The notes beneath the pieces are model-generated. The model was not told where the DNA came from. It saw only the letters and a list, made by a program, of their open reading frames with translations, and ran no database searches. DNA of 64,000 nucleotides from Lingula anatina (lineage: Eukaryota > Animalia > Brachiopoda): NCBI GenBank assembly GCA_051362555.1, contig CM120645.1, positions 2,480,001 through 2,544,000 of the forward strand. Reading direction: 5' to 3'. Below, piece by piece: positions 6,811 through 46,827 of the stretch (position 1 is the stretch's first letter; the number at the start of each line of letters is the position of its first letter). A program made the position numbers and the translations under genes.

Positions 6811-7055
6811 TTACTGAATCAGCTCAAGAATATGAGTTTTTCCTTGCTTCTCTAGCCACTCACACAGTATTTGATGTGCCCTGTCAGGTGTCTTAGTCAG
6901 GAAGTCCAAGAAAACAGCAGTTTTTTCAGGAGATTCCTTAATATCCTCAGATTCACGGTATGAAAAGATGCGTTCTTGGATAAAGACATTGATTATGTCA
7001 AAGAGACAAGGTTCTGTGATGTATTGCTTCAATGTATCTTTGTTATTGTGGACAG
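6811..7055 (-). CDS. Terminal exon of ROCO copy 1, CARD-like death-fold domain
   Basis: AVHNNKDTLKQYITEPCLFDIINVFIQERIFSYRESEDIKESPEKTAVFLDFLTKTPDRAHQILCEWLEKQGKTHILELIQ*: ~80 aa with a six-helix hydrophobic pattern like the CARD consensus. Homologous exons follow all three copies. Confidence 0.75.
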
Positions 7056-10000
7056 CTGAAACAGTAAATGAAATGTAATAACTGCACAAAACTGATACTA
7101 GGTGATACAAATTGTTTTAACTTTATGGACATAAGTTTTCCTCACTTAGGCCACACTTTTTTAATTTTATGGATGACATCCTGCGCGCGCACCGATTTTC
7201 GCCCGTTCTCCGAAAAAAAAAAAAAAAATCCCCCCCCCCCCCAGCCCCCAACGAAGTCGGTTGGCGCAAACGTCATTAGTGAATTTGCCAGGAAATGAGC
7301 TTTCTGCGCATGCGTATTATCGCCACGTGGAAATGTGGCCGCTTTGCCGTCAAATTCATCTCTAGGATAACTTTCAAATTACACGACAATTAAAGTCATA
7401 AAGAGAACGGGTGCCGTCGTTTTGGATTGGTATGCCATTGATATTGGGCATGGAGATATCACCTTTTTACAATTGTGCGAAAGGCTGGCGGCCGCCAGCG
7501 ATTATCGCCCGAAAAATTTCAGTGACATTCTGTACAAAGCAGCACATAGGCTACCAGGTTTTCTGTAGCGAAAAAAGGGTCGACAAGGGCGTCGAGGTAT
7601 TTGGTGGGCTGAAGGTCGGACAGGCCACCTGACAGTTTGGCCGTGTGAGTCGAAGTAGACAAAATGGCATCGTCCGAAATGACCTTTAATAGATTTGGTA
7701 GTATTAAGCATATCTTTGCATCATTATTTTAAACATTTCTGTGAAGTGTTCAAAATGCTTTAATATTCTGAGAATACGAATAAAGACACACTGTTTGTTT
7801 GATATTTGTTTTATTGATTGCTATACCAACAAAATGCATGAAATAACCTTAATAGATTTTGTAATAAAAAGTATATCTATCCATGACTTTTTTTTACATT
7901 TCTACGAAGTATTCACAATGCTTTAATATTTTGAGAGCATGGATAAAGACATATTGTTAGTTTGATACGTGTTTCTGTGGTAAAATTTGTGTTTCCAGCT
8001 GTGTACTGACAGCATTCCTTTACTTAAGCAGTATTTTTTTTTTTTTTGACCGTTTTTTTTTTTTTTCGCCCTCTCGCACCGATTTTGGGGTACCCAGAGG
8101 ATGTCATCCATAAAAATAAAAAAGTGTGGCCTTATCCACCTGAAAATTATGCAGCAGTGGGTGCCTGATTCACAAACTTACTGTATTTCAAAAATGCATA
8201 TAAAAAACTAAGGTACCAGGACAACGTGTTATTATGCTATTGTAGGTCCTGCAGTCTGTAATCCTTGTTTGACCTTTTTGACAAATTTGTCACCAAAACC
8301 TTGAACAACCGATAAATAGACAATTTGGGTGGGTGGATGGGCTCTGTGTTTGACTGACATCTCTTAATATTTGTTTTATATTTTTATTAGATATGAATGG
8401 ACAAATTAAAGGAAATATAAAGCAATGGCTCATCTATTTATTTATAAAACTTTATTTGCTATGGGTAGAAACTTATGGTAAATCTAAAATATATAGGCCT
8501 TCATGGGGTTTACCAGTACTGAAAGACTTACCTTCCCGCCAACTCATGACCAGGTGTGGTGGGTAGACCAGGTCTGCAAGAATGGAAACACCTGTATTGA
8601 CACATGGCACATGTCTTGGTTTGGAAACACGACCAGGCAGGTGGGTTAGATCTAGGATCTCTCCTGGAAAAAGTGTTGGTGCTGTCTCCCCCAATCTTCT
8701 TACCGTGGATGGCACTACATCTGGGTCTTGGACAGTTGGTAAAGGTTCATTCTGAGCCTCTGATGGAAAGAGTACTGGATTCTGACTGACACAGTGTGGA
8801 CACACCAAAAATTTGTCATAGGATGCCCCAGGCCAGTCCTCTTTGATGATGGCCATGAGGTCACCATGGGCACGACAGAGAACTGACCACATCTCTGAAA
8901 GTTTTGGTCTTGATCCACGTACAGCTATTGTGATGATACTGTCTGTAGCACTGATATCAGCATCAAGTTGTTGATGCCTTTCCTGTCTAGAAATCTGCAT
9001 TTGGCTTCCTTGAAGGTCTGCAAATACCCCATCCTTCCAATCAATACGTTTGGTCTTCAAATGTCCAAGGTACTTGTGCTGACGAACAGACAATTTTTCG
9101 TATATGCCCTCTGGACATCTGTATGGAAAATTGATCTGTAGGGTTAGTTGTGTGGTGCCTGTGGGAACTTTGCTGGGCCATTTTTCATCCAACTCCGGCT
9201 GTCTCTCCAGCTTTAGAAGCCATGGAAAGTGGAATGAGATGCTGGATGGAACCAATGGATCCTCCTGGACTTGATAGCAAAGCTCCAGTTTCTGCATTAG
9301 TTCTACCATGACAGCAGCTTCAGTGGTTGATAATATGAAAGGCTCACATAAGCAGTCCATTGCTTCTCTGGAAATGATGCCTCTGCTGAAGATGTCATCA
9401 TGGATTTTCTTTGCTTTAGGTTCTGAAATACTCATGGACTGTTGGAGTTTGGCCCGAACAGCATCACTATTGTGATTCAGCACTGCTTTGAGAACATTTG
9501 CAAGAACTTCTTGCTTGTGAAACACAACTTTCTTCAGAGTAGGGCTTGAATCAAACCAAATGATGTCACCACGATGAGCAAGAAAACTTAAAATGTCACA
9601 TGTTGCCAAATCAAGATCTTCTTTGGAAGAGTTCTTGTCTCTCCAGGATGCTGAGGCAGACTGTAGAATGATGTCTTGTGTCATGTCCCAGTCTAGTGTA
9701 TTTTCAGAGCCTTCATATTTCTTGATGCGAAGATTCTTGGCAGCATCAACCCACATTTCTGGTAAAACAACAACACGCTCTCTTGCAACAGTAGTAAGGT
9801 AGTTTTGTAGTTCTTCAATTCCCTCCTTGGACTTGGAACTCACTGCGAAAATGTCATCATGGATGTCAATGACTTGGTGTTGTGAGGCCATCAGTGCACT
9901 CCTTTTGTCTTCATAGGCTTGAAGGATAGATGTTTGGATTCTATCTGTGTTCAGAATTTTCTTCTCAATGCTCTTTATTTGAGACTCATACCATTTCTGT

Positions 10001-11403
10001 TTTCTCTGCCTGTGGTCTTCAAATTGTTTTTTAATTATAGAACATTTTGCACTGTAGGTTTCATCACGATCGATATGAGTTCCCACTATTGCCATCTTTA
10101 TACCTGGCATTTGTGCTTGTACCTTGTCAATCCAGTTTCCAATGTAGAGCTGATAATGTGCCTTATTTTCTATATCATATTTTGATAGGGCAAATGTGAT
10201 GAGGGCTAAGCCCCGTTTGGAAATGAAAATGGGATGGCCAATTTTGTAGACTCCATGTCCACCAAAGTCATTGATATTGAAGCCAATATCTTGGTCAAAC
10301 TGCCATGTTCTTTGTTCCACCACTCTTGTTCTGTCTGCTTCCTCTGTGAGTGTTGGCCTTCCAGTCTGCAATGTAAGAGAGAGACTAGTTTTTCCAGCTT
10401 CTGTTTCTCCAAGCAAGTTGACCTGTATTCTACTGGACAAAATTGCCTCGGTGTCAGTTAAGGCTTCAAAATACCTTCTGATTGCATCAATTCCTCTGTC
10501 AACAACACGTTCTGGTGGTTGTATCAAAAGATTACTGCCCACTGTAATTTTTGCCAAACTTTTCATATCCTTCATCTCAGGTGGCAGGTGAGTTATGTTG
10601 TTGGAGTCCAGATGCAGTGTTTCAAGTCCATGCATTCTAGAAATATCTGCTGGTATGTCAGATATCTGGTTGTGGTTCAGGCACAGCCACTTTAGGTTAG
10701 TCATGCCGCACAGTGCTTTTGGGAATGTAGCGAAGCGATTCCTACAGATATCAAATATTTTAAGCCTTGTCATACTACTGATCTCCTTTGGTAGGTCAGA
10801 TAATTGGTTGCTAACAAGGACCAGCTTTTCTAGGGAAGTCATGCCACATAGTGCCGCAGGGAATGCAGTAAAGCTATTGCTATGAAGCCAGAACACTCTA
10901 AGCTCTGTCATTCTGCTGATCCCCACTGGTATGTCAGACAGCTTGTTTTCAGGTAACATCAGGTGGACCAGGTTAGCCATCTCAAGCAGTGCTGTTGGGA
11001 ATTTGGTGAAGGAGTTATGACCGAGATTGAATATTTTAAGTGCTGTCATTCCCTGAATCCCTTCTGGTATATCATTAAACTTGTTGTCATACAGGTTAAG
11101 CTCCTGTAGGTTAGCCATGCCACACACTACTCTGGGGAATATAGTGAAGGCATTGGCATTAAGGTCCAATACTGTGAGGTGTGGCAGGTTGGATATGGAC
11201 TGCGGTAAAGAACATAGCTTGTTTTGTTTAACTGATATCCTCCAAACATTGCTGCACCTGTCAATGGACTCGGGTAGGTTGAATATGTTAGCATTGCTAA
11301 AATCAAGCTCTGTCCATGTCTTCACAGTGTCTTGTGTTGCAGACTCCGGAGACGTCAGGAGGATGGACAGACTCTCCTTCCCTGCTACTACCCTCCCTGT
11401 CAT
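6811..11403 (-). CDS. MFHAS1-like ROCO protein copy 1: LRR(12)-ROC-COR-CARD-like, exons 11403-8532 and 7055-6811 (~1038 aa)
   Basis: 23-aa LRRs, P-loop GETEAGKTS, G3 DFGG, G4 THID, COR region, then CPHC..FPGE..LVYPP as in the MFHAS1 C-terminus. Donor GAAG|gtaagt at 8532 and acceptor ttcag|CT at 7055 join in frame. The ORF-track start at 11427 is TTG; the first ATG is 11403, matching the paralog starts. Confidence 0.88.
7149..8131. mobile_element. Non-autonomous PIF/Harbinger-type DNA transposon in the last intron of ROCO copy 1
   Basis: ~32-bp TIRs GGCCACACTTTTTTAATTTTATGGATGACATCC / GGATGTCATCCATAAAAATAAAAAAGTGTGGCC, flanked by TTA on both sides. No transposase ORF. Confidence 0.85.
8532..11403 (-). 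CDS. Main LRR-ROC-COR exon of ROCO copy 1
   Basis: Single 2872-nt open exon with intact GTPase motifs. Confidence 0.9.
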
Positions 11404-12010
11404 GTCTCCGGAGCATTGATGGCACAAATTTTAACAAATTGAAATTTTCTTTTTGGTCTATGTTCCCTTTATATTGCAAAGTAGAGGGATTTCCTTGATG
11501 TAAATAAAATTTTCATTTTTTTTCCAAAGCAAGCAATGGTAGTGGACAAAATGATCTTCTTTTCTAATCTCTTGCTCTCTCTCTTCTATAATGATGTTTC
11601 ACTACTGGGGTATGTCCACCTTTAACCTGCAATGAAAAAATAATGGTGATATTTTAATAACATAATTCTAATTTTATAAAAGCTACATTGTTCAGTATAA
11701 TTAAGATGATTTGGAGTCATTTGATCACTACTACTATTACTGATTGCTACTTATTGACAATTTTCTTCAATATTTACACTTGAATGGCTAAAAAATAAAA
11801 TAAGAATAATGACTCCCATTGGCCCAGTAGAAATCTAACCCCGTAATGTTCTTTTCTGTAAATTTTCTTTTATAGAAATGTGTTGTATAAGGCTAGAGAA
11901 GCAAAATTAACCTGGTTACTTCTTGAAGTACATCAAACATAGCTTGGTTGCTATTGCCAAGACATCAAACATTTTTCAACATGGTCACAAATTTTTGAAT
12001 GGAAGATTAA

Positions 12011-12185
12011 GGCTCCATTCAGAATAGTGGACTAGCTAGTCCGAGGGTCAAATATGGCCGACCCACTTGAATACTTCCCCATGGGATATCTTGTCAGTGT
12101 CTATTAGCGCATTAGACTGCAAGTTTTGTATTGGATTGCCATATTTGACCCTCGGACTAGTTAGTCCCCTATTCTGAATGGGGCC
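12011..12185. mobile_element. MITE (Harbinger/Tourist-like), ~175 bp
   Basis: ~48-bp imperfect TIRs GGCTCCATTCAGAATAGTGGACTAGCTAGTCCGAGGGTCAAATATGGC / GCCATATTTGACCCTCGGACTAGTTAGTCCCCTATTCTGAATGGGGCC, flanked by TAA/TTA. Confidence 0.75.
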
Positions 12186-15137
12186 TTAGATTTTCTCACA
12201 AGTTTGTGGCCATATTGAAAATGCTTTTAAAAAATCTTGAAATACCAACCAAGCTTATGAATCAAGCTAAAAATGCAAGAATGAAACAAGATATAAAACA
12301 AGATATATAAAATAGAAACTGAAGTGAAGAATTTTGAAAGGATTGTCATTTGACACATACAGAAAACTGATACAAATCTTTAATAAAATGCTGTCTAGAT
12401 TAGTATATCAATAATTAATTATAAGTAAAATATGTCTTTTTAAAATAAATATATTAATCCTCATCATTCTTACCTAGACTTTACTGAACTTCCCAAGTAA
12501 TAAACTAAACTGTGTTTATTATCACGCATGTCCATGGCCAGGCTCTGGTGCATTCTTTGCAGGTGGGAAAAGTGGCTTCCAAAGGCACACCTATAGTAAA
12601 TAAATCTCAAGAGATCAAATTAATATTCGTTCAAAGGTAATTGTTTTGCTCCAGTTGTAATTTGAAAATCTGCAACTGTTATGATCTACTGTTGAAAAAA
12701 GAAATCAAATGAGAATATGGTGATAAGACCTTGTCTGAACAAATGCTCCCATTTAATTATGAAGTACTTGTTTGTACACATTTTTGCAGTGTTGTTCATC
12801 TTTTGTTTCAAAATGACATTGTACTTTTTGTTTCTGACAATAATATTGTGAACACAAGCATTGAATTTGATTGATGCATGTAGCCATCCACTAGTTTCTG
12901 AAGCGTGTATATATATAAGGTTAGAGATTATCATAACAATATGAAATATCACATTCATCAAGACATTTAAATATCTAGAATTATAAATTGTTTGTTACTT
13001 ACAAAACATTGACAAACCTTAATACAAATAGTAATTTACTTCTTATATTTCAAATCTTGAACATCTGAAATCTGCAGGATTCCTATATATATAGCCTCAT
13101 AAAGTCCTATAGGAGATCCTATAGATCATTTTTATAAGAGAGTATATCTTGTACTTGTATATTAGTCCTTAATTGTTCTTAAATTTTGTCACAAAAGATG
13201 TACCTTCAAAACTAATACAGACACTTAACTTTCTTTTTCTACCTACCTAGACGTAGGTTAACTTTTCCAGAAGAACAATGTAATATAAATTGAAGTGTTT
13301 ATCACCACAACATGAAGTTTGATGTGACTGTTACCAAGCACCAGAAGCACTGCTGCATATTTTTGCGGGACAGTAGAAAAAATGGCTTCCACAGACACAG
13401 AGCTATGGCAAATAAACGTCATGTGACTGAGTCAATATACCTAAGTTAACCAAATGCATTGTTTTGCCTCAGCTGAAGTGCAGTCATAACATGTGATTGG
13501 TACCAAGGCACTGTTTGCATTTTTTAAGGGAGGGGGGGGGGGGGGAGGATAAAGATGAAATACTATACCATTGCATTTCTAGTCAGGTTTTGTGGCCATT
13601 GTTTAACATAATTACTTTCTTAATATGCATCTTTTAAGTTAACTTTTTCCTCTCAAGAGTTAAAACTTGTGTTGCGTAAAAGTTGAATCCCCACAAATTT
13701 TGTCTGTGTCTGAAAAACAGTTATGCTTACTTCTTATATGGAAGACTAATTATAAGAAGAACAAGACGGAATCTGACTGACAGTATGACTATGGGATATA
13801 ACAGGTAATGGACTGCAGCTGCAAAAGTGTACCTTTCACCATGAAACTTTCACATACCTAGATCAAATTTTACCCAGAGCAGACTTTTTTCTGTTTCATT
13901 TGAACCCCCCCCCCCAACCCCCTTGGGTATGTGAACCTGATAATTAACATTAAAATAAGCCTTGATAGATTTCTTACCTGTGATAAACCTCAGATAACTT
14001 GGAAACTTATTTCTCCTTCTCCTTAAATAGTAATTGCTGTTTGTGATCACCGGGACTTGATTCAGATTTGAAAACTATATATATATATATATCAGTCATT
14101 CTTTGCTAGTGGTGCACTGCAGGGGGGCCATAACAAGAATGTTATTTAAATTTAGATAGCCAACCAAATTCTCATGACATCGTTGTGTATGTTTCAATAA
14201 CAAATCAAAGAAGCTGCATGAGCAAGGAGGATGTTGTTATAAAAGCAAAAAAATAGAAAAAGCAGAAAATATATCGAAATAACCCTCAAAATGGCGTCCT
14301 TTTTTGTGGAATTTTGACCCTACCTCTATTTAAGAACAGTTTGTTTAGGGTTTGAATGGATTATTGAAGCAGGAAATACATCTACTGCAAGAAGATATAA
14401 TAAACAGAATGTGCAAATTGTTATTTAAATAAAAATTTATTTGAAGTCACTGAAAAATGATCACAAAATTAGCTTAACTTACGATACATGCGGTGTCCCA
14501 CCCCGATGAAAATTTCATCTAATCCTATCTTTCCGTATTAAAACTGTTCAATCGTCCAAAGTAGTATGTCGGTTAGTTTGTGTCACGAAGTCCATGATAA
14601 TATCAGTTTTCTTAAGAATTTCACATTTATTGCTCAGCAAGGTCGATTTTTCTTCACCGCGTCCCAATATAACGTTCGCAACGCTGAAACTTCAGAGATC
14701 GATTTTTATCAGACGACTTTAAAATGCCGCGTGAAAATTATACATCGATAGCGATCTTCTTCCATACTCACTAACTGATGACGTCTTACACACGAATGGC
14801 TTCTTTTGCACACTAAAAAAACCAGCTCAAACTGGCGGGTGGCCCATTCTGATAACATGTTACGCAATGACGCTGTCGAGATAGGATGCAGGGCACAGGT
14901 GAAATTCCCTCGATTTAACCGTCACAGGATTGTTTATTGGGATCTTCTTTGTATGAAGGTGAGAAATAATGAGTTTCGTTTCATTTTTCTTCAATTGTTT
15001 CAACATATTTGTGTACCGATTGATTTTTACCATTCTATAAGTAGGGTGACTTCGTCTGAACTTTCGTTTTGCGTCTGTTTCACATGGGGGACTAAAGGTC
15101 ATATTGAACATGGTGACGCGGTGATACCGTATTCATG

Positions 15138-16072
15138 CACGCTCGGCTGTCACCTTGATTGGATAGTAAACGATTGTCGTAAAATCGCTAAATGATATTA
15201 AAACCGGGTGCATAAACTTGAAAACCACCTACAACAACCTTGGACTGCCACATTAATCCAATACAATGCAAACATAAACTATAACAAGTGGTTAAAGCCT
15301 TCAAACCGAATGTCGTAAAGTCCCCATATACCTCCATAGAGACAATAAAATAGAAGAAGCTTCTGAAACAAACCTGATCCAGTTCCAACAGAATAATCGA
15401 AATAAAATACTGCCGGGCATCGGAGCGGCCTAAAACTTGGCACGCTTACCGCTAATACTGCAGGCTACATCATCCCGTCGCTCGTTTGTAAATTCCTTGC
15501 ATGGCATACGCACAATCAAACCGTAAAAAACAAATTCTCGGGGTGTCGTTGGCTAGGTCCACTCAACAATCCAATTCAGGAAATGACGTAACCGCAGAGG
15601 TCGCATTGTCCAATGGCATGGCTTCTTTTTCGTAATGGTAGGTTAGAGTGGACCTGGCCAACGACACCCCGAGAATTGGTTTTTTACGGTTTGATTGTGC
15701 GTATGCCATGCACGGAATTTACAAACGAGCGACGGGATGATGTAGCCTGCAGTATTAGCGGTAAGCGTGCCAAGTTTTAGGCCGCTCCGATGCCCGGCAG
15801 TATTTTATTTCGATTATTCTGTTGGAACTGGATCAGGTTTGTTTCAGAAGCTTCTTCTATTTTATTGTCTCTATGGAGGTATATGGGGACTTTACGACAT
15901 TCGGTTTGAAGGCTTTAACCACTTGTTATAGTTTATTTTTGCATTGTATTGGATTAATGTGGTAGTCCAAGGTTGTTGTAGGTGGTTTTCAAGTTTATGC
16001 ACCCGGTTTTAATATCATTTAGCGATTTTACGACAATCGTTTACTATCCAATCAAGGTGACAGCCGAGCGTG
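15138..16072. mobile_element. Fold-back non-autonomous DNA transposon: 427-bp inverted arms, 81-bp spacer, 8-bp TSD TATTCATG
   Basis: Arms 15138-15564 and 15646-16072 are reverse complements with about 5 mismatches by eye. TATTCATG at 15130-15137 and 16073-16080. Termini CACGCTCGGCTG..CAGCCGAGCGTG. Confidence 0.92.
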
Positions 16073-17518
16073 TATTCATGTTCTCTTGTTCTCGAAAACT
16101 CAATCATCGAAATTGAATTACTTTTTTTTAGTTTTGTCTTAAATTAAGCTGCTACACTGTATTCCGTGCGTTTAAAATTTAACCGTCTGTAAAAACAGCA
16201 ATAATGGATTACTAGCAACACTTAAGTTACGCAATGAAGCACCGAAAATGGGTGAAGAAAATGTGTCTCAGTAATGCGTGTTTGCCACTCATAATGCACT
16301 GTACTTTGTTTGAATAAGCAATAAACTATTTGTGATCTTAGGTTATTCATTGTTCGTTATCAGAGTTAACAGATTCTTTGTGTGATTTTTTTCAGAATCC
16401 CAAGAGTGGATGCCTTAGTGAGCACAGAACAGATATCACCATTGGTCTACATATGTCAGGAAGAATGTTATAATTACGAACTTTGTGTTACACTGAACTT
16501 CATTTTGTTAAATTTTGTATTTAACTGAACTTTATTGTGTTAAAATAATAATAATAAAATAATAGTTCTGATAAAAAACTACAATCTGGAACATTCTTTA
16601 GATCAACTTTGTTCAGTGTGTGTCCCATATGACAGAGTTACTGTAAATAAAATATGTGCATTATTCCTCTGTGTTTGTCAATTCCATTTTAAAAGCATGT
16701 GAAAGTGGTGTGCCCCTCATGAATGAAGTGTGTATGGATAATAGCAAAAATATTGTTATTATTTACATGATTATAAAAAGTTTTTGTACCCGCGTCAATA
16801 ACGTTACCGTGACCCACATATTCACCATTTTTATTAATTATGAAATGTGGATTAAATTCTTCAAAACCAGTTTTGAAGCATTGAGACAACACCCCCTTAT
16901 GATTTAAACTAAAACTGAAAACATTCCATTAGACTTTCATTAGTTTGTGCAAAATATATTACCCAGGGTAACGCGTCTTGGATTTGGTGGGTATAGCTGT
17001 TCAACTCTCCTGTGTGCCCTAAAAAGGGCAGCTGCTGTTTCCCTTTTTATGAAATGATAAACTGTGATGGTGTAGCTATCACATAGCAAAATTACAGCTT
17101 CCCAGAGAAAGTTTGAAATTTTCGGTCAAATTCAACATTTTGTAACCACTAGCAAAGAATGACAGATATATATATATACAACTGTGCAATTTCTGTGTAC
17201 GGCACTGAAAAACCCCCCAAAAATTAGCTAAGTCAGTGACAGCAGTATTTCGTAAGGCAAGCACATGTTTTATATTTCCCTTCTATATACGAACACAAGT
17301 AGATATAAGTTTGCTTTGGGCTTAGTGGGGCATACAGGCCTTGTCCTACAAAAAGGCAGGGATAATATTGATTTTGCTGCTGTTGTGTATACTACAATTA
17401 GTGCTTTTTTTCTTTCACTTTTGTTATGATCTTTAGGAACATACAGTATCAACTCAATGAAGAGGAAGTAAAATGATTGAGTCTAAAGTACAAAAATAAA
17501 GCCTACATCCATGTGATG

Positions 17519-17653
17519 CACCCTGAGCTTCAGAGCTAACTTGACACTAACCTTTTCACTGTAGCCTATCTCCATCGTGTCAAGTAACTTGACACGATGG
17601 AGATAGGCTACAGTGAAAAGGTTAGTGTCAAGTTAGCTCTGAAGCTCAGGGTG
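17519..17653. mobile_element. 135-bp perfectly palindromic MITE with 8-bp TSD ATGTGATG
   Basis: 67-bp arms around a single central A (17586). ATGTGATG at 17511-17518 and 17654-17661. Termini CACCCTGAGCT..AGCTCAGGGTG. Confidence 0.92.
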
Positions 17654-18556: not shown

Positions 18557-18700
18557 CAGTGGCAGATTTAGAAGGTGGGGGGGGGGGGGGGGGGGGTCAG
18601 GGAGTCCTAGGTGATGGACGGTTTTGCATCCGAGGACTAGGCCTGTTATCTGGACATCCTCCCCCCCCCCCCCTTTAAATAATCCTGGATCCGCCCCCTG
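18557..18700. mobile_element. Small MITE with CAGTGGC(G)GATCC-type termini and poly-G/poly-C sub-terminal tracts
   Basis: CAGTGGCAGATTTAGAAG-(G)n at left and (C)n..CCTGGATCCGCCCCCTG at right. Imperfect TIR. Confidence 0.55.
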
Positions 18701-18704
18701 CTCA

Positions 18705-21260: not shown

Positions 21261-21264
21261 ATTA

Positions 21265-23630: not shown

Positions 23631-23878
23631 TTAGTATTTGATTAGCTCAAGAAGATCATACCGCTCATGCTCCACAAAAAACTGACATAGAATTCCAAAT
23701 GTCTTGTCAGGTTTCTTAGTCAGGAAGTCCAAGCACACTGCAGTTTTATCAGGAGATGCCTTTATCCACTCAGATTCACGGTCTGAAAAGATGCCCTCCT
23801 GGAAAAGGAGATCGATCATGTCATAGAGATCCTGGTCTGTGATGTTTTGCTTCAGCGTATCTTTGTTCTTGTTGACTA
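23631..23878 (-). CDS. Terminal CARD-like exon of ROCO copy 2
   Basis: VVNKNKDTLKQNITDQDLYDMIDLLFQEGIFSDRESEWIKASPDKTAVCLDFLTKKPDKTFGILCQFFVEHERYDLLELIKY*. Confidence 0.75.
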
Positions 23879-26800
23879 CTGAAAGAGTAAATACAATGAA
23901 ATAAACTAATAATTTTACTACAAACTTTATGTGTGGGGATGGTTGGCTCAAGTCCCAGTTAAAACCCACTACATCACAACAACATGGTACTGTGTTGGAC
24001 CTCTCACATGTAGGAACGTGTGTTAATAAGACAGCGCCTAAGGATTTCATACAGTGTTACATACTACAGCATTACTGTTGAAGTTTTTTAATGACATTCC
24101 CAACAGCAACAACTATGTGACAATGCACAATCAACTAGTTTGTCAAAGATTTTGCAAACTAATGAATAATACCTCATTATACATTGCAATACAGAAACAA
24201 ACAGTAACCGAATTACTGAAAATATTTCACAACTGTTTATCCATAAATTAGTAAGTGATAGAAGAATTTATCTTTTTTAATTTGTTTTTCATACCTTGCT
24301 TCCAGTGTGGTGGGTAGACCAGGTCTGCAGAAATGTATTCACCAGGTTCAGTGCTGTTGCATTGCACTTTCTTTGGCCTGTCAACACCAAGTATTTCAAT
24401 CTCAAAGCGAGTTGGCACCTCATGGTTTATACTTGTACAGTGTGGACACACAAGATATTTGTCATAAGACACCCCAGGCCAGTCCTCTTTGATAATCGCC
24501 ATGAGGTCATCATGGGCACGAGAGAGAACTGGCCACATCTCTAAAAGATCTGATCCTCGGATGGCTATAGTGATGACCCAATCTGTGGTACTGTTGGCCA
24601 TTTCAAGCTGTTGACGTCTCTCCTCTCGAGACAGCTGCATTTTGCAACTTTGAAGCTGTGCATACACTCCATCCTTCCAATCTATATGCTTGGTCTTCGT
24701 ACGTGCAAGGTACTTGTGTTGACGAACAGATAGTTTTTCATATATGCCTTCTGGACATTGGAATGGAAAATGGACCTCCAGAGCTAGTTGTGTGGTGTCT
24801 GAAGAAACCTTGCTGGGCCATTTCTCATCCACCTCAAGCTGTCTCTCCTGAGTGAGAAGCCATGGAAAGTGAAATAAGATGCTGGATGGAACCAATGGAT
24901 CCTTGACTTTGTAGCATAGCTCCAGTTTTTGCATCAGTTCTACCATGACATCAGTTTCAGTGGTTGATAATCTGAAAGGCTCACAGAAGCAGTCCATTGC
25001 TTCTCTGGAAATGATGCCTCTGTTGAAGATGTCATCTTGGATTATTTTTGCTTTAGGTTCTGATATACTCATGGACTGTTGGAGTTTGGACCAAACAGCA
25101 TCACTATCATGATTGAGGACTGCTTTGAGGACATTGGCAAGAACTTCTTGCTTGTGAAACACAACTTTCTTCAGAGTAGGGCTTGAATCAAACCAAATGA
25201 TGTCTCCACGGTCAGCAAGAAAACTTAAAATATCGCGTGTTGCCAAATCAATGTCTTCTTTGGAAGTGTTATTCTCTTTCCAGGATGCTGGGGCAGACTG
25301 TAGAATGATGTCTTGTGTCTTGTCCCAGTCTAGTGTATTGTCAAAGCCTTCATATTTCTTGATGCGAAGATTCTTGGCAGCATCAACCCACATTTCTGGT
25401 AAAACAACAACACGCTTTCTTGCAACAGTAGTAAGGTAGTTTTGTAGTTCTTCAATTCCCTCCATGGTCTTGGAACTTACTCTGAAAATGTCATCATGGA
25501 TGTCCATGACTTGGTGTTGTAAGGACTTCAGTTTACTCTTCTTGTCTTCATAGGCTTGAAGGATAGATGTTTGGGTTCCATCTGTGTCCAGAATTTTTTT
25601 CTCAATGCTCTTTATTTGAGACCCGTACCATTTCTGTTTCTTCTGCCTGTGTTCTTCCAGTTTGCTTTTTACAATAGAACATTTTGCACTGTAGGCTTCG
25701 ACTTGATCAATGTGAGTTCCCACTACTGCCATCTTTATACCTGGCATTTGTGCTTGCACCTTGTCAATCCAGTTTCCAATGTAGAGCTGATAATGTGCTT
25801 TATTTTCTGGATCATATTCTGATAGGTCAAATGTGATGAGGACCAAGCTGCGTTTGGAAATGAAAATGGGATGACCAATTTTGTAGACATCATGTCCACC
25901 AAAGTCATTGATATTGAAACCAATGTCTTGGTCAGTCTCCCATGTCCCTTGTTCTACCACTCTTGTCCTGTCTGCTGACTCTGTGAGTGTTGACTTTCCT
26001 CTCTGCAATGTGTGAGAGAGACTAGTTTTCCCTGCTTCTGTTTCTCCAAGCAAGTTGATCTGTATTCTACTTGACCGGATTGCCTTGGTGGTGGTTAATG
26101 CTTCAAAATACCTTTTGATTGCATCAAGCCCTCTGTCAGCAATGCGCTCTGGTGGTTGTAACAGTGGATTCCCCCTCAACGTCAATTCCACCAAATTTTT
26201 CATATTCCCTATCGGAGGTGGCAGGTGGGTGATGTTATTGGACCTCAGATCCAGTGATTCCAGTCCAATCATTGAAATGATATCTGCTGGTATATCAGAT
26301 ATCTGGTTGTCATGCAGTCCCAGCTTCTTTAGCTTAGTCATGCTACACAGTGCTGTGGGGAATGTAATGAAAGCATTCTGATGGAGAAACAATTCTTCAA
26401 GCTCTGTAAACTCACTGATGTCCACTGGTACGTCAGATATCTGGTTCTTCCTTAGGTCCAGCAACTTAAGTTTAGCCATGTCACACAGTACTGTTGGGAA
26501 TGCAGTAAAGCAATTGCTATCAAGCCAGAACCATCTAAGCCCTGTCATATGTTTGATTTCAACTGGTATGTTAGACAGCTTGTTGCCTTTTGATAACAGT
26601 GTCCCCAGGTTAGTCATGTTAAACAGTGCTGTGGGAAATGTATTGAATTTATTAAAACTAATATCAAATCTTTGAAGGCCCGTCATACCACTGATCTTCA
26701 ATGGTAAGTCAGATAGATGGTTGCTGCTCAGGTTTAGGTCTTGTAGCTTAGCCAAGCCATACAATGCTATGGGAAATGTAGTAAAAGCATTGTTTGATAG

Positions 26801-27055
26801 GTCCAAGTAAGTGAGGAGTGACAGGTTGGATATGGACTGAGGTAAAGAAGATAACTTGTTATGAGGAGCAAATAGAAAACGAACATTAGCACACCTGCCA
26901 ATAGACTCGGGTAGGTTGTCTCCAGGCATAACAGCCATATCAAGAAGAAGGTCAGTCCATTCTTTCACAATGTCTGGTGTGTCGGACTGTGGAGACAACT
27001 CAAGTCTACGTAAGAGATCAAAACCCCCCCTTCCTGCTACTACTCTGCCAGTCAT
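23631..27055 (-). CDS. MFHAS1-like ROCO protein copy 2: LRR(12)-ROC-COR-CARD-like, exons 27055-24295 and 23878-23631 (~1002 aa)
   Basis: GETEAGKTS, DFGG, THID, CPHC, LVYPP. Donor CAAG|gtatga at 24295 and acceptor tttcag|TA at 23878 give an in-frame phase-1 join. Confidence 0.88.
24295..27055 (-). CDS. Main LRR-ROC-COR exon of ROCO copy 2
   Basis: 2761-nt open exon. Confidence 0.9.
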
Positions 27056-30000
27056 GTCTGAGGAGGGTTGATGTCTATGTTACCATTAGATTGCCAGGGG
27101 AGATTTCAGTGACTTTAGTTGCATGTTTCAATTTCTTACCATAGTTATATAATTATATGAAATTTATTTTCTTTTCTACTTTCATGACCTCTCTTCCAAA
27201 GATAGTAGTAGTTAACAAAATGCTCTTTTCTGTCCTTTCTTTTCTATGATGACGTCTCAAATTATTCACCTATAATGAAAAAATAACATAAATTAAGAGT
27301 AATTTTTTATTTCATAATTAACAGTTTGTATAAATACTACTAGTATGAAAAGTATCTTGTTCACTGGTCAAGTTGGTTTGAAGTAAATTACAACTAGTAA
27401 ATACCAAAAATGTAAGGAAAAAGAAAACATCTGTTCAAGTTTCTAAATTTCTGCAGAAGTAAATAATTTTAAAATGGTCTTCTTCAGTTTTCCATCAAAA
27501 AAAAAAAAAAAAAAAAAAAGGAAAGAAAGAAAGAAAAAAGGCACATAATTTACTAGTACCTTGCAGTAAAATAGAAAATGAACTGCTACTCAAAATTCTT
27601 AAACATATATATGCTTTTCAATTTTATATGACCACTTAATTAACTCTTTAAAATATCCTTGCAAAGTGAATACAAAAATTCATAGCATTATTTTAAATTG
27701 TACATTACCTAGACTTTGTTGAACATGGCAAAATTTAGTGTGTAAAGCCCTGCTACATGTTGTTGGATGTGTATGTCACTAGATCCCCTCTATTGTCTTT
27801 TTCGCAGGTGGGAAAATGGTGTCCACTTTCACAAAAACACCTGTGGTAAACAAGTATCATGTGAGTAAGTTTCAGTCGTAATAATAATAAAAGTAAAAAA
27901 AAATAATAATGAAAGTTCTTTAAAATTGCATTCCATGCATGACTAAGTACTGTGCAATAACAAAAGTGTCATACAAAAAATGAGAGACCAACTATTTGGG
28001 CATCTAAAAGTCTAGTAACGTAGAGAAAGCCCAAATTACCTATCTATACCCTGTTATATAAAATGACCTCATAGAAGAACTAAATAATTATAGATAGCAT
28101 AACATGATAAAACAACAGTTCAGGTAAAAAAATTGGCAGAAACAACTATTTGACCTACCTGTTTGTAATTGATGAAATTGGATTTTTCCTGAGGACAATT
28201 ATTTTTTTCCCCATCGAAAAGATCACAGGAGTGATGAATCTTACTCCTTACAACTTCGATGAAATTGTTTATATTTTAACTGATTACAGTCATTAATTAC
28301 AAGTATAGTAGGAATGGTGGTCTGCAAGCTAGAAAACAGGATATATATAGCCGTACTTGGACCTCATTCCTGTCACACTGTCTTTTTCCAAACATACAAT
28401 ATATGTACTGGTACAGTGCACATACTCATACAGATAAACTGCCCTCCCTATAATTTGTGATAATATATATATATATATATCAGAGCCTTCAGTGCTGCAT
28501 TTTGTGGCACACAAGTAAATATCACCATTTTAAAACTGAATATCACTGATTATATACCGTATTTGAGCTCTATCACGCCATATCTACTATGTACTATAGT
28601 GTTATTTTCCTTTTTTACCTTTTTTACAAATCATTGATCCAAAACTCCATTCCTGGAGGAGAGTTATTGATCAAATCCTTAACAGTTACATGTACTTCTT
28701 TTAAAAAATTCTTGGCCTTGCTACCTGTAGATATGGTGAAAAAGGCTCCTGTCTAATCCATGCAGCTGTTTGTGTAAATTAAAGTATGAAAGTCACTGAT
28801 AAACTTACCAGAAACTCTTTTTGCTGTGAACAGTGATAAAACTTCAGGTAATGTGGACTCTGATTTCTCCTCCCCTAATGTTTCTTCACTGGAACTTGAT
28901 TTGGATTTGAAAACTAACTGGTAGGCTTAATTTTTCTGGAAAAGATGTCGAGTGGCAGTGAAAGTACACCATGTAGCTATTCACGAGGAAAACAATATGA
29001 GATTTATGACAGTCATGTTAACTTTTTTTTTCTCCTGTCCAGGTGTTGAGGGGGATGAACTTGTTTACATATTCAATAAACTGACTAAAGTCACTGCTTA
29101 CAAGTGTAGCAGGAATGGTAGTCTGCTAGCTAGAAAATATAGTGCATTTACCAGTACTCAGACCTCATTACACTGGGCTATAACCCTACACCATTAGTCT
29201 GTATCAGGCATCATTTGGTGCCTGGTCTTCCATCCCTAAGACTACCATTCCCGTCTCACTGTCATATTTCAAACAATATACTCAGACAGTGTACATAGTT
29301 GGTAAAAGAGACAAAAAAATAATAACAAAGTTACCTATTATCAATGTGCATTTAGTATTTCTATTTAAATATAAGTTGGCAGGGGTAGTAGGAACCCTTT
29401 AGGCCTTGTTTTTTTTTTTCTTAATGTGATATTTCGGCACATTTGTGTAACAACAAGAAACCTCAAAACCTTCCCTGTTATTTAAAGAAGCTTCATAAAA
29501 ACACTTATAAAATTATAGATACTTATTAAAGCAGCAGTTCAGGTAAAAAAATGTCAAAAAAAAACTGTTTGACCTTCCTGTTTACCTTGCATTAGTATGT
29601 AAGTCCTAAATTGTTGAATTTTTTTTCACAAATCACAATTCTTATATAAAAAAATGTTCCTTCAAAACTATATTATACAGGTACGTATGCTTCTGCTTTT
29701 TAACTTACCTGGGCTGGTTAATTTTCCAAGAAGTAACGTAAGTTGAGGTGTTTATCCCCACAGCATAAAGTTTGTTGTGACTGTTGCTAGGCACTGGTAC
29801 ATTCTTTGCAGGTAGGAAAAAATGGCTTCCACAGGCACACCCAAGGTCAAAATCATGTGACTGAATCAGTACATTCAAAAGCTTTGTTTCCTCCATTTGT
29901 CATTAAAAATCCACAAGTGTTTTAATCTGATGTTGAAAAAACAAATTAAAGCATGACTTTGGCAACTCTTCTGAACAAATGTTCCCATTTTTATATTTAA

Positions 30001-30229
30001 GTCCACATCATTGAAGAATTAATGTTTTCCTTTTGTAAGAAAAGATGCCATTGTAATTTTCTTCTCTACCACAATTTCATTGCTGAAGTGCAGTAGCATC
30101 CATGAGAAGAATGTTTATTGAGGGAAGGATGTAAATGATTTGAAATATCACTTAAAGTTTTTTGAAGAAACGGAAAAAATTCAAATTTATAGAAGTCCTT
30201 CTTTTGTTATGGTCTTTCTTTATGAATAA

Positions 30230-31160
30230 CACATTTTATAAGCATTTAATTTTATTTTCTTTATTTATATAAAATATTTCATACAACATATTTACTATAA
30301 GGCTTACAATTTAAAAAAAAAGGAAAAATGAAATAGATTATTTAATGGAATAGTAGAAGGAGAAGAAGGGGACAAGAACAAATCAAGTTACATCTTTTTA
30401 AAGAAGAAACATGCTTTTTACTGCCATCGTTATTGATATTTTAAAACAATTCAAAAGGTGCATGCACCCACACACACACCAAATCCCAACACAAAGTAAT
30501 CCTATTTGGGGAAGTTGAGAAGAGTACCACTCATCTATAACTATATTCTATACAATTATGAGTATAATATCAAAATAAGTGGATATTATCACATAATCCT
30601 GTCCTTCCTGTCTGTGATCTATACAACATCATGGAGAAGTACAGAATGGTACAGTTTGTACACATCTGTTTGTTAGCTGGTAATTATCACACCCAAGCTA
30701 CACTGGAGATAATATTCATTTAATACTTTGTTTTATATCTATTCTATATACAATTGACCAAAAAAGTTCTGAAACATTAAATTATTTTTCAATAATTTAA
30801 AAAAACTGTAATCTAATGGGAAAATCTTCAGTGTATGTAAAAAGTAATGTGGGTGCATTATCCATCAATATTTGGTTAAAATATTTACCTTAACTCATAC
30901 AGTTTCTTAATAATTATTCAAAATAACAATGTCTCTGATTTGGCAAGGTGTATGTACAAAAATCAGACCACCCAGAGTTTCAAAGTTTCCAGAAAACTAA
31001 CCTCTATATATTATCAGCCATTTCCAGTGACTGCTGGATGACAGAGGGTAGCTTACAGTAAACTATAAAACCTAGGGTGCAGGAGAACCTCCTTTACTTA
31101 TTGTACATATTTTAAAAAAGACCCGATTTCTTTGGAAATTACCATATCAGCAGATTAATG
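30230..31160 (-). mobile_element. Possible highly decayed L1/Tx1-like LINE 3' fragment
   Basis: Broken minus-strand peptides resembling IW..K.RV..KGG..P and a W.N..I motif, ending in an A-rich tail near 30250. Very degenerate. Confidence 0.25.
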
Positions 31161-31951
31161 TACACAAATACCATGGAAAGTTCTATCAACCCTGGTGACA
31201 GTGAAGTTTATATGGCACCCACTGAAAATGGAGATTAAGCGGGTTTTGTCCTTTTCTGAAAGTTCCCATTTATATGGCACAATAACACAAATTAAAATAT
31301 TAATATTTATAGCGAGTTTCTTTATCTATGAGATATGTAATAATCATCTGATACTTGTGCTCTCTTCATTAAACATGTCTTATAAAAAAAAAAAGAGTCA
31401 AAACTTCCATAAAGGAAAAAAATTCCCTACTTAAACTACAAATAAAATGCTATGAAAACACTTCAAAATCATAAAACGTATAAATCAGACACTTAGAACA
31501 TCCCTATATACATGTACAATATAATAAAATGTATCACAGATTTCTGCATCATGTCTAATAGCACATTAAATATCCAGATTGTTATTTGTGCTTTCATTTT
31601 AAAACATAATTTAGTTGTGTCTGTGTGCTAATTTGTCCACAACTTGCCAATATTTCTTATCCTCTTTTCAGTAGATAACAATGTCATCAGTGGAATAGAA
31701 TGTTTTAGCTGAAACTGAGTAATATAAAATTTGGGCAATGAGTATAATCTTGAAATTGTCATCAATTCTTCATATCTGAACATTTGCCTCTGACTGACCA
31801 TTGCAGTGTCTTTATTCTTGACAATGTGCACAGCTCTCGTAAGTTAACATTTTCCACATCATGTCTGAGAAGTCATTTAGGCATTGGGAACTGTGTTCTT
31901 CATTTTTCTTTTTTCAAGTTTATCACATAGCACAGTGTCCTTAGGTATTCC

Positions 31952-32199
31952 TTAGTACTTGATCAACTTGAGAAGATCATACCGCTCATGCTCAACAAAA
32001 AACTGACAGAGAATATCAAATGCCTTGTCAGATTTCATGGTCAGGAAGTCTAAGAAGACAGCAGTTTTATCAGGAGATGTCTTAATCCACTCAGATTCAC
32101 GGTCTGTCAGGATGCTTTCTTGGATAAAAACATCAATCAACTCAAAGAGACAAGGTTCTGTGATGTTTTGTTTCAGCTTATTTTTGTTCTTCTTGACAA
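31952..32199 (-). CDS. Terminal CARD-like exon of ROCO copy 3
   Basis: VVKKNKNKLKQNITEPCLFELIDVFIQESILTDRESEWIKTSPDKTAVFLDFLTMKSDKAFDILCQFFVEHERYDLLKLIKY*. Confidence 0.75.
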
Positions 32200-35100
32200 C
32201 TGAAATGCCCAGGTTTGATACAAGAAAATACAATGTTACAATATTGTTGCTGGAGGTCCTACTTGCACATTCAACTGCAATCACTGTATGATGCTCAACC
32301 TAGTTTGGTTAAAATATCAGACTTGGCAAATAAGCGTGCAACATATCGTTATTTTACCCTTTTTAATTAAGAAACAAATAGAAAATACCTTGAAATAAAA
32401 TTTACTAAAGCTCATACCTTCCTGCCAGCTCATTGTCAGGTGTGGTGGGTAGACCAGGTCTGTAGGAATGTAGACACCAGTATTGACACATGGCACCTGT
32501 TTTGGTTTGGAGACGCCACCAAGCAGATAGGTCTGGTCCAGTATCTCTCCAGGGAAGAGTGTGGGATCCTCACAGTTTTCACTTGTACAGTGGGGGCACA
32601 CCAAGTATTTGTCAAAGTACACCCCAGGGCACTCTTCTTTGATGATGTCCATGAGGTCAGCATAAGCACAAGCAAAAACGGACCACATCTTTGAGAGGTC
32701 TGCTCCACGTATAGCTATAGTGATGATCCAGTCCAAGGTGCTGCTAGCAGGATGGTGATGTCTTTCCTGTCGGGAGAAATGAGTTTGACATTCTTGAAGT
32801 TCTGCATACACCCCATCCTTCCAATCAATACGTTTGGTCTTCAAAAGTCCAAGGTACTTGTGCTGACGAACAGACAATTTTTCGTATATGCCTTCTGGAC
32901 ATCTGTATGGAAAATAGTTCTGCAAAGTCAGTTGTGTGGTGCCTGTGGGAACTTTTCTGGGCCATTTTTCATCCAACTCAGGCTGTCTCTCCAGCGTAAG
33001 AAGCCATGGAAAGTGGAATGAGATGCTGGATGGAACCAATGGATCCTCCTGAACTTGATAGCACAACTCCATTTTCTGCATCAGTTCTACCATGACATCA
33101 GCTTCAGTGGTTGATAATCTGAAAGGCTCACATAAGCAGTCCATTGCTTCTCTGGAAATGATGCCTCTGCTGAAGATATCATCATGGATTTTCTTTGCTT
33201 TAGGTTCTGAAATACTCATGGACTGTTGTAGTTTGGCCCGGACAGCATCACTATCGTGATTCAGCACTGCTTTGAGAACATTTGCAAGAACCTCTTGCCT
33301 GTGAAACACAACTTTCTTCAGAGTAGGGCTTGAATCAAACCAAATGATGTCACCACGGTCAGCAAGAAAACTTAAAATGTCGCATGTTGCCAAATCAAGA
33401 CCTTCATTGGAATAATTTCTCTTTTTCCAGGGTGTTGGAGCAGACTGCAGAATAAGGTCTTGTAACTTGTCCCAGCCAAGTGTATTTTCAGAGCCTTCAT
33501 ATTTCTTGGTGCAAACCATGGTGGCAGCATCAACCCACATTTCTGGTAAAATTACAGCACGCTCTTTTGCAACAGTAGTAAGAAAACTTTGTAAACCTTC
33601 AATTCCCTCCATGGTCTTGGAACTCACCCCAAAAATGTCTTCATGGATGTCTATTACTTGGCCTTGTGACGACATCAGTTTCCACTTCTTATCTTGATAG
33701 GCTTGAAGGATAGATGTTTGGGTTTCATCTGTGTTCAGAATTTTCTTCTCAATGCTCTTTATTTGAGACTCATACCATTTTTGTTTTCTCTGCCTGTGGT
33801 TTTCAAACTGTTTTTTAATTATAGAACACTTTGCACTGTAGGCTTCATCTTGATCAATATGAGTTCCCACTACTGCCATCTTTATACCTGGCAATTTTTC
33901 TTGTACCTTGTCAATCCAGTTTCCAATGTAGAGCTGATAATGTGCTTTATTTTCTGGATCATACTCTGATAGGTCAAATGTGATTAGGACCAAGCCGTGT
34001 TTGGAAATGAAAATGGGATGGCCAATTTTGTAGACATCATGTCCGCCAAAGTCATTGATATTGAAAGCAATGTTTTGGTCAGTCTCCCATGTCCCTTGTT
34101 CTACCACTCTTGTCCTGTCTGCTAATGTTGTGAGTGTTGACTTTCCTCTCTGCAATGTGCGAGAGAGACTGGTTTTTCCTACTTCTGTTTCTCCAAGCAA
34201 GTTGACCTGTATTCTGTTTGACAGGATTGCCTCGGTGGTAGTTAATGCTTCAAAATACCTTTTGATTGCATCAAGGCCTCTGACAGCAATATGCTCTGGT
34301 GGTTGTACCAGGGGGTTCCCCCTCACATTTAATTCCACCAAGCTTTTCATATTCCCTATCTGAGGTGGCAGGTGAGTAATATTATTGGACTCCAGATCCA
34401 GTGATTCCAGCCCAGTCATTGAAATGATATCTGCTGGTAAATCAGATATCTGGTTGTTACTCAAGTCCAGCTCCTTTAGGTTAGTCAAGCTACAAAGTGC
34501 TTTGGGGAATGTAGTAAAACAATTCCAACTGAGATCCAATATTCTAAGCCCCGTCATACCACTGACCTCTACTGGTATGTCACATAGCTGGTTGCGATCC
34601 AGGTACAGCTCTGCCAGGTTGGCCAAGCTACACAATGCCACGGGGATTGTAGCGATGCAATTGGCAATGATACTAAATCTTTTAAGCCCTGTCATACCAC
34701 TGATCTCCGCTGGTATGTCAGGTATCTGGTTGGTATTAAGGTACAGCTGCTCTAGGTTTGCCATGCCACACACTGCTGTGGGGAATGCAGTGAAACGATT
34801 ACAATGAAGCCAGAACAGTCTGAGACCAGTCATTCTATTAATTTCAACTGGTATGTCAGATAGCTTACTGTCCGTTAATTCCAGATGCTCTAGGTTAGCC
34901 ATGTTCAGCAACGCTGCTGGGAATGTGGTGAAGGGATTCCCACTGAGATCGAATATTTTGAGCCCAGTCATACCGCTGATCTCCACTGGTAAGTCAGACA
35001 ACTGATTGTCATGCAAGTTCAGGATTTCTAGCTTAGTCATGCCACACAGTACTTTGGGGAATGTAGTGAAAGCATTGGCATAAAGGTCCAACATGGTGAG

Positions 35101-35334
35101 GAAAGACAGGCTGGATATGGACTGTGGTAAAGAAGATAGCCTGTTATTTTGTGCATATATTACACTAACATTGGCACACCTGTCAATGGACTCAGGAAGG
35201 TTGTCTATGTCAGCATGGCTAAAATGAAGGTCAGTCCATTTCAGCACAATGTCTGGTGTCTCAGACTGTGGAGACAACTCAAGTCTACTTAAAAAATCAA
35301 GACTCTCCTTACATGCTACTTTTCTGCCAGCCAT
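31952..35334 (-). CDS. MFHAS1-like ROCO protein copy 3: LRR(14)-ROC-COR-CARD-like, exons 35334-32418 and 32199-31952 (~1054 aa)
   Basis: GETEVGKTS, DFGG, THID, CPHC..FPGE..LVYPP. Donor GAAG|gtatga at 32418 and acceptor tttcag|TT at 32199 join in frame. A 5'-UTR acceptor sits at 35533 and a probable upstream non-coding exon ends at 36181. Confidence 0.88.
32418..35334 (-). CDS. Main LRR-ROC-COR exon of ROCO copy 3
   Basis: 2917-nt open exon. Confidence 0.9.
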
Positions 35335-40311: not shown

Positions 40312-43721
<3,410 letters not shown>

Positions 43722-46826: not shown

Positions 46827-46827
46827 C

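Follow-up and report, generated by a model that had tools for sequence, protein, structure and literature searches.

Can an animal build an intracellular immune receptor on a ROCO GTPase? The question is raised by a stretch of 64,000 nucleotides from the brachiopod Lingula anatina (GenBank assembly GCA_051362555.1, contig CM120645.1, positions 2,480,001 to 2,544,000), here called the window, which has a GC content of 37.6%. Three genes on its minus strand, genes 1, 2 and 3, each encode leucine-rich repeats (LRRs), a ROC GTPase domain followed by COR and, on a separate terminal exon, a CARD. The anatomy is that of a sensor, a switch and an effector: variable repeats, a conserved switch and an exchangeable effector, present in many paralogues. 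The reading we favour, with a probability of about 0.6, is that genes 1-3 are spliced and transcribed members of a ROCO family expanded in Lingula, and that they likely serve as cytosolic immune receptors. Their parts are as follows, in window coordinates.

8532..11403, minus strand: gene 1, coding exon 1; N-cap, 11 LRRs, ROC with helical insertion, COR-A, COR-B; RNA coverage
10489..11247, minus strand: gene 1, LRR array; 11 x 23 amino acids, alternating two-repeat unit of 138 nt
7056..8531, minus strand: gene 1, intron; phase-1 GT-AG, 1476 nt; 16 junction reads
6811..7055, minus strand: gene 1, terminal CARD exon, to the stop; Pfam CARD E 1.5e-5
24295..27055, minus strand: gene 2, coding exon 1; 11 LRRs, ROC, COR; RNA coverage
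26126..26884, minus strand: gene 2, LRR array; 11 x 23 amino acids
23879..24294, minus strand: gene 2, intron; phase-1 GT-AG, 416 nt; 8 junction reads
23631..23878, minus strand: gene 2, terminal CARD exon, to the stop; Pfam CARD E 6.7e-4, under the gathering score
32418..35334, minus strand: gene 3, coding exon 1; 13 LRRs, ROC, COR; RNA coverage
34273..35169, minus strand: gene 3, LRR array; 13 x 23 amino acids, one 138-nt two-repeat unit more than genes 1 and 2
32200..32417, minus strand: gene 3, intron; phase-1 GT-AG, 218 nt; 16 junction reads
31952..32199, minus strand: gene 3, terminal CARD exon, to the stop; Pfam CARD E 7.2e-8, six-helix model

Gene structure and domains

Gene 1 begins with an ATG at 11403 and is read through the donor 8532|GTAAGT and the acceptor TTTCAG|7055 to a stop ending at 6811, giving 1038 amino acids. 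The corresponding positions are 27055, 24295|GTATGA, TTTCAG|23878 and 23631 in gene 2 (1002 amino acids) and 35334, 32418|GTATGA, TTTCAG|32199 and 31952 in gene 3 (1054 amino acids). The spliced frames are open throughout and the acceptors are pyrimidine-rich AG sites; without splicing the frames of genes 1, 2 and 3 would end 19, 15 and 33 codons past the donor. A first-pass annotation of this DNA had proposed three intact minus-strand LRR-ROC-COR genes, each joined in frame to a terminal exon, and the open spliced frames bear this out. It had placed a phase-1 GT-AG donor just after an LVYPP motif; phase and intron type hold, and the donor lies not immediately behind the motif but a few codons further on, within a ...W-x-Q/E-x motif.

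RNA data were taken from raw-read runs labelled as the same species; six of nine runs were used, and 6-30% of each run. Reads cross all three junctions at the bases which had been predicted (8532/7055, 24295/23878 and 32418/32199): 16 reads in 3/4 runs for junction 7055-8532 of gene 1, 8 reads in 2/4 runs for junction 23878-24295 of gene 2 and 16 reads in 2/4 runs for junction 32199-32418 of gene 3, all with ends CT..AC on the plus strand. Every junction read comes from one study (runs X7-X9); no junction reads were found for genes 2 and 3 in runs X1 and X4 or for gene 1 in run X5. The coverage of gene 3 in run X4 and of gene 1 in run X5 consists of plus-strand first mates only, which fits minus-strand transcripts in stranded libraries. 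Most aligned reads are 90-95% identical to the window genes and may thus stem from other alleles or close paralogues; the reads prove the splice for genes 1-3 or for their close alleles or paralogues. By tblastn the 64-kb window contains no ROCO or CARD fragments beyond these.

Each ATG is preceded, at a distance of about 190-220 nt (e.g. at 35533), by a conserved pyrimidine-rich AG|G where the similarity between paralogues starts. This is probably the 3' splice site of a 5' untranslated region intron, which would follow a non-coding first exon.

In the long exon of each gene Pfam identifies LRR, Roc, COR-A and COR-B, and no kinase domain in any of the three. The nucleotide-binding motifs G1-G5 are present in genes 1-3, and in an alignment of 34 rows G1 G/K (28/28), G3 DFGG (30/30) and G4 GTHxD (31/31) are all invariant, with G2 R in 30/30, G2 T in 29/30 and G5 S in 30/30. 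By these sequence tests genes 1-3 encode ROCO GTPases. The full-length model of a family protein, P0001, has a predicted local distance difference test score (pLDDT) of 86 and a predicted template modelling score of 0.74, and its best structural match is the C. tepidum LRR-Roc-COR structure 6HLU, followed by LRRK1 and LRRK2.

Two local features of the core should be mentioned. Between G4 and G5 (P0001 residues ~499-557) there is a long two-helix insertion, kept across the family, which possibly forms an extra interaction or oligomerisation surface. The end of COR-B, just before the CARD linker, carries a nearly invariant C-x-H-C...C cluster (C913, H915, C916 and C949 of P0001) which is a possible zinc site.

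Pfam, a structural model and fold searches all identify the terminal exon as a CARD; at first it had only been said to resemble one in its helical pattern. Pfam lists PF00619 for all three exons, 2/3 of them above the gathering score, and no Death or DED (death effector domain) family. The single-sequence model of the gene 3 exon has six helices (pLDDT 87), and CARD structures head both fold searches made with it: Foldseek puts the CARDs of CARD8, caspase-1, Apaf-1 and NLRC4 on top (template modelling score ~0.8, all E values >0.001), and VIA-align finds the caspase-1 CARD with Z 11.5. In the latter search ranks 1-19 are CARD-bearing entries except for one de novo design, and the first Death domain has rank 20 with Z 8.9. 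A profile of eight family CARDs is closest to the CARD of Apaf-1 (E 4.7e-10) and to RAIDD (2.9e-8). A single exon compared with the PDB by phmmer gives E 0.09 or worse, so profile and fold searches are needed to see the likeness. The CARDs of genes 2 and 3 are 73% identical.

The Lingula family and the C-terminal slot in relatives

The family count is based on RefSeq protein records of an older Lingula assembly and not on the present one. Both haplotypes may be present in that older assembly, gene 3 being matched by P0001 as well as by P0043, and records are not genes, so the gene number is uncertain. Among the 40 records retrieved, 31 have a CARD and 22 the full LRR-ROC-COR-CARD order, the latter with 6-16 motif-matched LRRs; some records have two CARDs. 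Records of these relatives carry the name 'MFHAS1 homolog'. The CARD-less models P0009, P0011, P0017 and P0036 stop at the conserved donor position or shortly after it, an indication that an exon was overlooked. A tree of 39 rows places 14/15 Lingula rows in a single clade (SH-aLRT 99), as would be expected of a lineage-specific expansion. It should be noted that this is a quick tree of hand-picked rows, midpoint-rooted and with long branches, from which no order of events is claimed; an earlier quick tree had 31 rows, 14 proteins without a full ROC-COR having been dropped. Four Lingula records have ROC-COR-CARD but one LRR at most (P0024, P0045, P0027 and P0035); they may be sensor-less helpers or truncated models.

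A single RefSeq scaffold holds the same triad: XP_013404856 is 89% identical to gene 1 and is a model without most of the LRRs, XP_013404859 is 85% identical to gene 2, and the ROCO part of XP_013404860 (P0043) is 97.7% identical to gene 3. The CARD exon is part of each of the three models, which means that public annotation already has the fusion. The first-pass annotation stated that the open reading frame (ORF) track misses the fusion, which is possible for that track but does not apply to the RefSeq models of the syntenic genes. Reads, family, selection signal and effector swaps give the design more support than it had; it is less novel than first thought because RefSeq and Pfam already carry the fusion and the design had been proposed before.

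Genes 1 and 2 diverge from the syntenic RefSeq proteins P0006 and P0004 (89% and 85%) far more than gene 3 (97.7%) or a neighbouring kinase exon (99.3%), which points to strong haplotype divergence or to paralogue replacement at two positions. The kinase exon belongs to a NUAK-type kinase gene upstream of gene 3 (window 40312-43746, minus strand), the 99.3% being its identity to RefSeq. XP_013404860 itself is a 1752-residue kinase-LRR-ROC-COR-CARD model whose kinase matches this separate neighbour. A fusion of kinase and gene 3, DAPK-like if real, was set aside as a probable gene-model chimera; 9/104 donor/acceptor combinations between the two are open in frame.

Relatives outside Lingula were sought with a profile search of 1.84 billion representatives, and 208 proteins matched with E values of 1e-30 or lower. 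Among the best 150 of the 208 there were 138 new ones; 41 of the 138 run >55 residues beyond COR and 97 do not. Pfam applied to 19 hand-picked relatives lists Death in ten, CARD in four, and caspase, trypsin, OTU, GT4 and nothing in one each. Sources were named for 20 relatives, among them amphioxus, molluscs, an annelid and an anemone, and all relatives are predicted gene models. Branchiostoma has LRR-ROC-COR-CARD and LRR-ROC-COR-CARD-CARD, and also proteins with a caspase (SHG and QACRG present), trypsin, OTU or GT4 after LRR-ROC-COR; LRR-ROC-COR-Death is found in Branchiostoma, Sinanodonta, Owenia and Actinostola. The Atlas contains Roc-COR-Death clusters in molluscs and one Roc-COR cluster, mostly from sponges, with a CARD in 26% of the members. 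As judged from these predicted proteins, a constant ROC-COR core with an exchangeable C-terminal effector occurs across invertebrates. With LRR-ROC-COR-CARD present in Branchiostoma, the exact architecture is not unique to Lingula.

Six of the amphioxus rows (P0072, P0063, P0062, P0028, P0030 and P0083) form one clade (SH-aLRT 99), and this Branchiostoma clade carries four effectors: a caspase with intact motifs, OTU, Death and GT4. It is a family with a polymorphic effector, as judged from the gene models, and mirrors the bacterial systems.

Proposed receptor function and its alternatives

The repeats differ most where a ligand would be expected to bind. Among genes 1-3 paralogue identity is 82-91% in the LRR core, 60-71% on the convex side and 26-35% at the exposed strand positions, compared to 79-86% in ROC, 75-80% in COR and 55-72% in the CARD. 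ROC and COR are under purifying selection: in the fixed-sites codon model omega, the ratio of nonsynonymous to synonymous rates, is 0.30 for ROC and 0.41 for COR. The xxLxLxx positions have an omega of 1.95 (p 0.0003), or 1.71 (p 0.007) with doublet substitutions, and the other exposed LRR positions 0.72; the likelihood-ratio test (LRT) statistic for the strand set vs those positions is 34, and the observed strand-face omega was reached in 0/60 null simulations. Over 274 LRR units of the family the entropy at strand positions 3, 5, 7 and 8 is 3.3-3.7 bits vs 2.3-3.5 on the convex side, so that the strand face is only modestly above the convex side. A set of just these four positions (3, 5, 7 and 8) gives omega 2.1-4.4 in all three models; it is not counted because it was chosen after the per-position values had been viewed.

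Several results weigh against the receptor reading. When the strand set is given its own, free rate omega is 1.83-2.13 (p 0.07-0.11), a six-position strand set with a free rate has omega 1.2-1.3 (not significant), and Nei-Gojobori counting at the strand sites gives 0.49-1.12. The near-orthologous pairs have no concave excess (2/78 for gene 3 and P0001, 11/66 for gene 2 and P0004, 2/78 for gene 3 and P0043). The codon-model tests rest on three sequences, and the Lingula paralogues are mosaics of converted blocks with a changing closest partner, which can inflate or bias selection tests. Diversifying selection on the strand face is thus suggestive, not settled: its significance depends on the model, and the free-rate, counting, near-orthologue and mosaic results stand against it. 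Expression is low, with none in run X1, and no kB motif or interferon-stimulated response element (ISRE) is common to the upstream regions of genes 1-3. A search for partners with the CARD profile, which is a weak test, returned Lingula ROCO proteins in 16/16 matches and no caspase or adaptor. Finally, known CARD signalling uses wheels and filaments, compared to which a dimer is a small platform. Promoter motifs were rejected as evidence altogether, a kB-like motif being found at gene 3 only and an ISRE-like motif at gene 2 only; the window-wide background is 0.28/kb for kB-like and 0.45/kb for ISRE-like motifs.

How might such a receptor work? What we infer is that the proteins are cytosolic, that they bind a ligand, how the nucleotide controls them, which partner they have and whether cell death or inflammatory signalling results, and this makes up the following proposal. 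The concave face of the LRRs, which changes fast, would recognise a ligand of microbial origin or one arising from damage. The ligand would trigger hydrolysis or release of GTP from a resting, GTP-bound monomer. COR-COR dimerisation would then bring two C-terminal CARDs together, and the pair would recruit either a CARD caspase or the adaptor CRADD and activate it, placing two caspases side by side. Dimerisation is what activates initiator caspases, and the caspase fusion of amphioxus agrees with the proposed pairing of CARDs. An NLR (NOD-like receptor) is turned on by nucleotide binding, and the proposed ROCO switch is the reverse of this rule.

The GTP-bound resting monomer is proposed because of the behaviour of C. 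tepidum Roco and of MASL1. The C. tepidum Roco protein is mainly a monomer with GTP and a dimer when nucleotide-free, and the change is relayed among LRR, Roc and COR (PMC6337361); loss of GTP raises the toxicity of human MASL1/MFHAS1 (PMC3995007), so that mutating the P-loop may switch the protein on instead of killing its activity. In an older model it is GTP that drives ROCO dimerisation (PMC4104024). Lingula is reported without APAF-1 and caspase-2, but with CRADD and six CARD caspase-Y paralogues, and these paralogues or CRADD would be the likely partners; PIDD and PYCARD were not detected in lophotrochozoans in the same study, which also describes an Owenia caspase with a ROC pro-domain (PMC11463336). 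The idea that the Lingula genes repeat NLR logic with a GTPase therefore has to be divided. Domains, splicing, family expansion, LRR face and swappable slot fit a receptor, whereas the switch is unlikely to be NLR-like, the nucleotide cycle of the C. tepidum protein running the other way (PMC6337361).

The alternative that survives best, which we nevertheless consider unlikely, is that the proteins are MFHAS1-like scaffolds whose LRRs bind host proteins and which modulate TLR/NF-kB/MAPK signalling, or stress-induced or developmental cell death, the CARD docking onto an existing pathway. Human MFHAS1 acts in TLR2/JNK/NF-kB signalling (PMC5520684) and is described not as a receptor but as modulating ERK signalling and events downstream of TLR2; the Atlas clusters nearest in features are chordate ones that bear the name MFHAS1 (score 0.95), and the amphioxus clusters of P0087 and P0121 are 90% conserved across several species, as housekeeping proteins would be. 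Such a scaffold predicts neither dozens of paralogues, nor varying LRR numbers, nor a strand face at 26-35% identity. It is quite improbable that the CARDs signal without a caspase, e.g. through a RIP-type kinase or adaptor to a transcriptional output, or are decoys which dampen NLR or caspase signalling. The CARDs of RIPK2, NOD1, CARD8 and ICEBERG match too, Lingula is reported to have CARD-NACHT-LRR NLRs (PMC11508797), and the CARD evolves fast (55-72% identity between paralogues), but in relatives this slot is occupied by a caspase whose catalytic motifs are intact, or by another enzyme, and these fusions point to an activating output. A neutral birth-and-death expansion homogenised by gene conversion, with LRR variability from relaxed constraint and repeat shuffling, would agree with the mosaic blocks, the non-significant own-rate models, the near-orthologous pairs and the several split or partial RefSeq models, but it is highly improbable given that genes 1-3 all have open frames and are spliced and transcribed, that purifying selection acts on ROC and COR (omega 0.3-0.4) and that the strand-face omega differs strongly from that of other exposed LRR positions (LRT 34).

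The immune receptor reading can be extended to a more general proposal, which is possible but more doubtful than not. Marine invertebrates would have an overlooked class of cytosolic innate receptors based on a ROCO GTPase and not on a STAND ATPase, in which ROC-COR would be the dimer switch between variable LRRs and an interchangeable effector (CARD, Death, caspase, OTU, trypsin or GT4); in Lingula, without APAF-1 and caspase-2, ~20-30 LRR-ROC-COR-CARD paralogues of different specificities would activate the expanded CARD caspases, firing on GTP loss. If true, this would be a second animal design of intracellular pattern-recognition receptor beside the NLRs, on a switch common to LRRK2 and predicted bacterial defence proteins, and it would offer candidates for the open question of what activates CARD caspases in APAF-1-less lophotrochozoans (PMC11463336). 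The CARD/caspase output might also serve as a simple read-out for the disputed monomer-dimer cycle of ROC-COR. If the architecture alone is real, it is a well-supported, already machine-annotated, lineage-specific expansion.

The rest of the window contains a HemK/PrmC-type methyltransferase gene (~3222-5700, plus strand), convergent with gene 1 and with spliced reads at 5263-5683, and palindromic elements resembling miniature inverted-repeat transposable elements between genes 1 and 2 (15135-16075, 11941-12255 and 17519-17653). A Ty3/Gypsy-type long terminal repeat (LTR) retrotransposon at 46213-53241 (plus strand) has gag-like and pol ORFs, identical LTRs (616-base match) and a 4-base target duplication, and is apparently intact and very young. 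An ORF with RNase H1 N-terminal and GDSL-like domains (61081-62958, plus strand) is followed by an endonuclease ORF which runs off the window (63238-63999, plus strand); the two look like the start of an element resembling a long interspersed nuclear element.

Comparison with known systems

In the literature searched there was no description of the Lingula family or of a metazoan LRR-ROC-COR effector slot; the main Lingula immune study (Gerdol et al. 2018) lies outside the texts searched and may describe the family. The nearest named relative is vertebrate MFHAS1/MASL1 of ROCO group 1, which has the same LRR-ROC-COR order and no kinase. It is described as LRR plus RocCOR only (PMC6337361), which agrees with the statement in the first-pass annotation that it has no death-fold. 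The likeness is based on RefSeq names and Atlas clusters, the trees being without an identified vertebrate MFHAS1 row. MFHAS1 is a single conserved gene, whereas the Lingula genes are multi-copy and diversifying and have a CARD on a separate exon.

DAPK1, with the order kinase-ankyrin-ROC-COR-Death, differs in having a kinase, no LRR, a Death domain instead of a CARD and a single copy. It resembles the Lingula proteins as a metazoan ROCO protein with a death-fold domain C-terminal to ROC-COR (PMC6337361). 'LRRs-caspase' shortcuts have been described in amphioxus (PMC2575513); neither in that paper nor in PMC6321704 and PMC12373286 were passages on ROC or COR found.

Bacterial proteins of the type LRR-AP-GTPase-COR, whose C-terminal effectors number at least 24, have been presented as NLR-like counter-invader systems (Kaur et al. 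2021, PMC8195603). They share with the animal proteins the domain order, fast-evolving LRRs (compared there to the sensors of NLRs), a swappable C-terminal effector (TIR, caspase, trypsin, GT4) and multiple paralogues per genome, and differ in being bacterial, the Lingula effector being a metazoan CARD on an intron-bounded exon. The supplements of that paper list COR+Death in sponge and coral, and 'COR+CARD' occurs 0 times in 13 of its supplement files, one of them available only in part.

Among eukaryotes the ROCO repertoire of Trichoplax includes CARD and Death (Civiero et al. 2014, PMC4104024) and Aplysia has ROCO-TIR/Death proteins (PMC9334734). Both have expanded ROCO genes with CARD, Death or TIR for which immune roles were suggested; the architectures are mixed there, whereas one architecture is expanded in Lingula, and a Trichoplax protein with the order LRR-ROC-COR-CARD may be among them. 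The brown-algal LRR-ROC-COR candidate immune receptors (Teng et al. 2024, PMC11378527) are likewise an expanded family with 23-residue LRRs and positively selected concave sites. They have one exon per LRR and mostly no effector, whereas in Lingula all LRRs are in one exon, their number varies by 138-nt two-repeat units, and a CARD follows.

The NLRs (NOD1, NLRC4, Apaf-1) combine, like the Lingula proteins, an LRR sensor, a nucleotide switch and a CARD in one chain, with tandem expansion and a variable LRR face. In the Lingula proteins the switch is a Ras-like ROC-COR GTPase, the order is reversed to LRR-ROC-COR-CARD, a dimer would be expected, and the nucleotide logic is possibly inverse. With E values of up to 1 allowed, Pfam lists neither NACHT nor NB-ARC for genes 1-3, and the NTPase is Roc. 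By domain content and by domain order, the two defining tests of an NLR that they fail, the predicted Lingula proteins are ROCO proteins and not NLRs, but they may work like NLRs.

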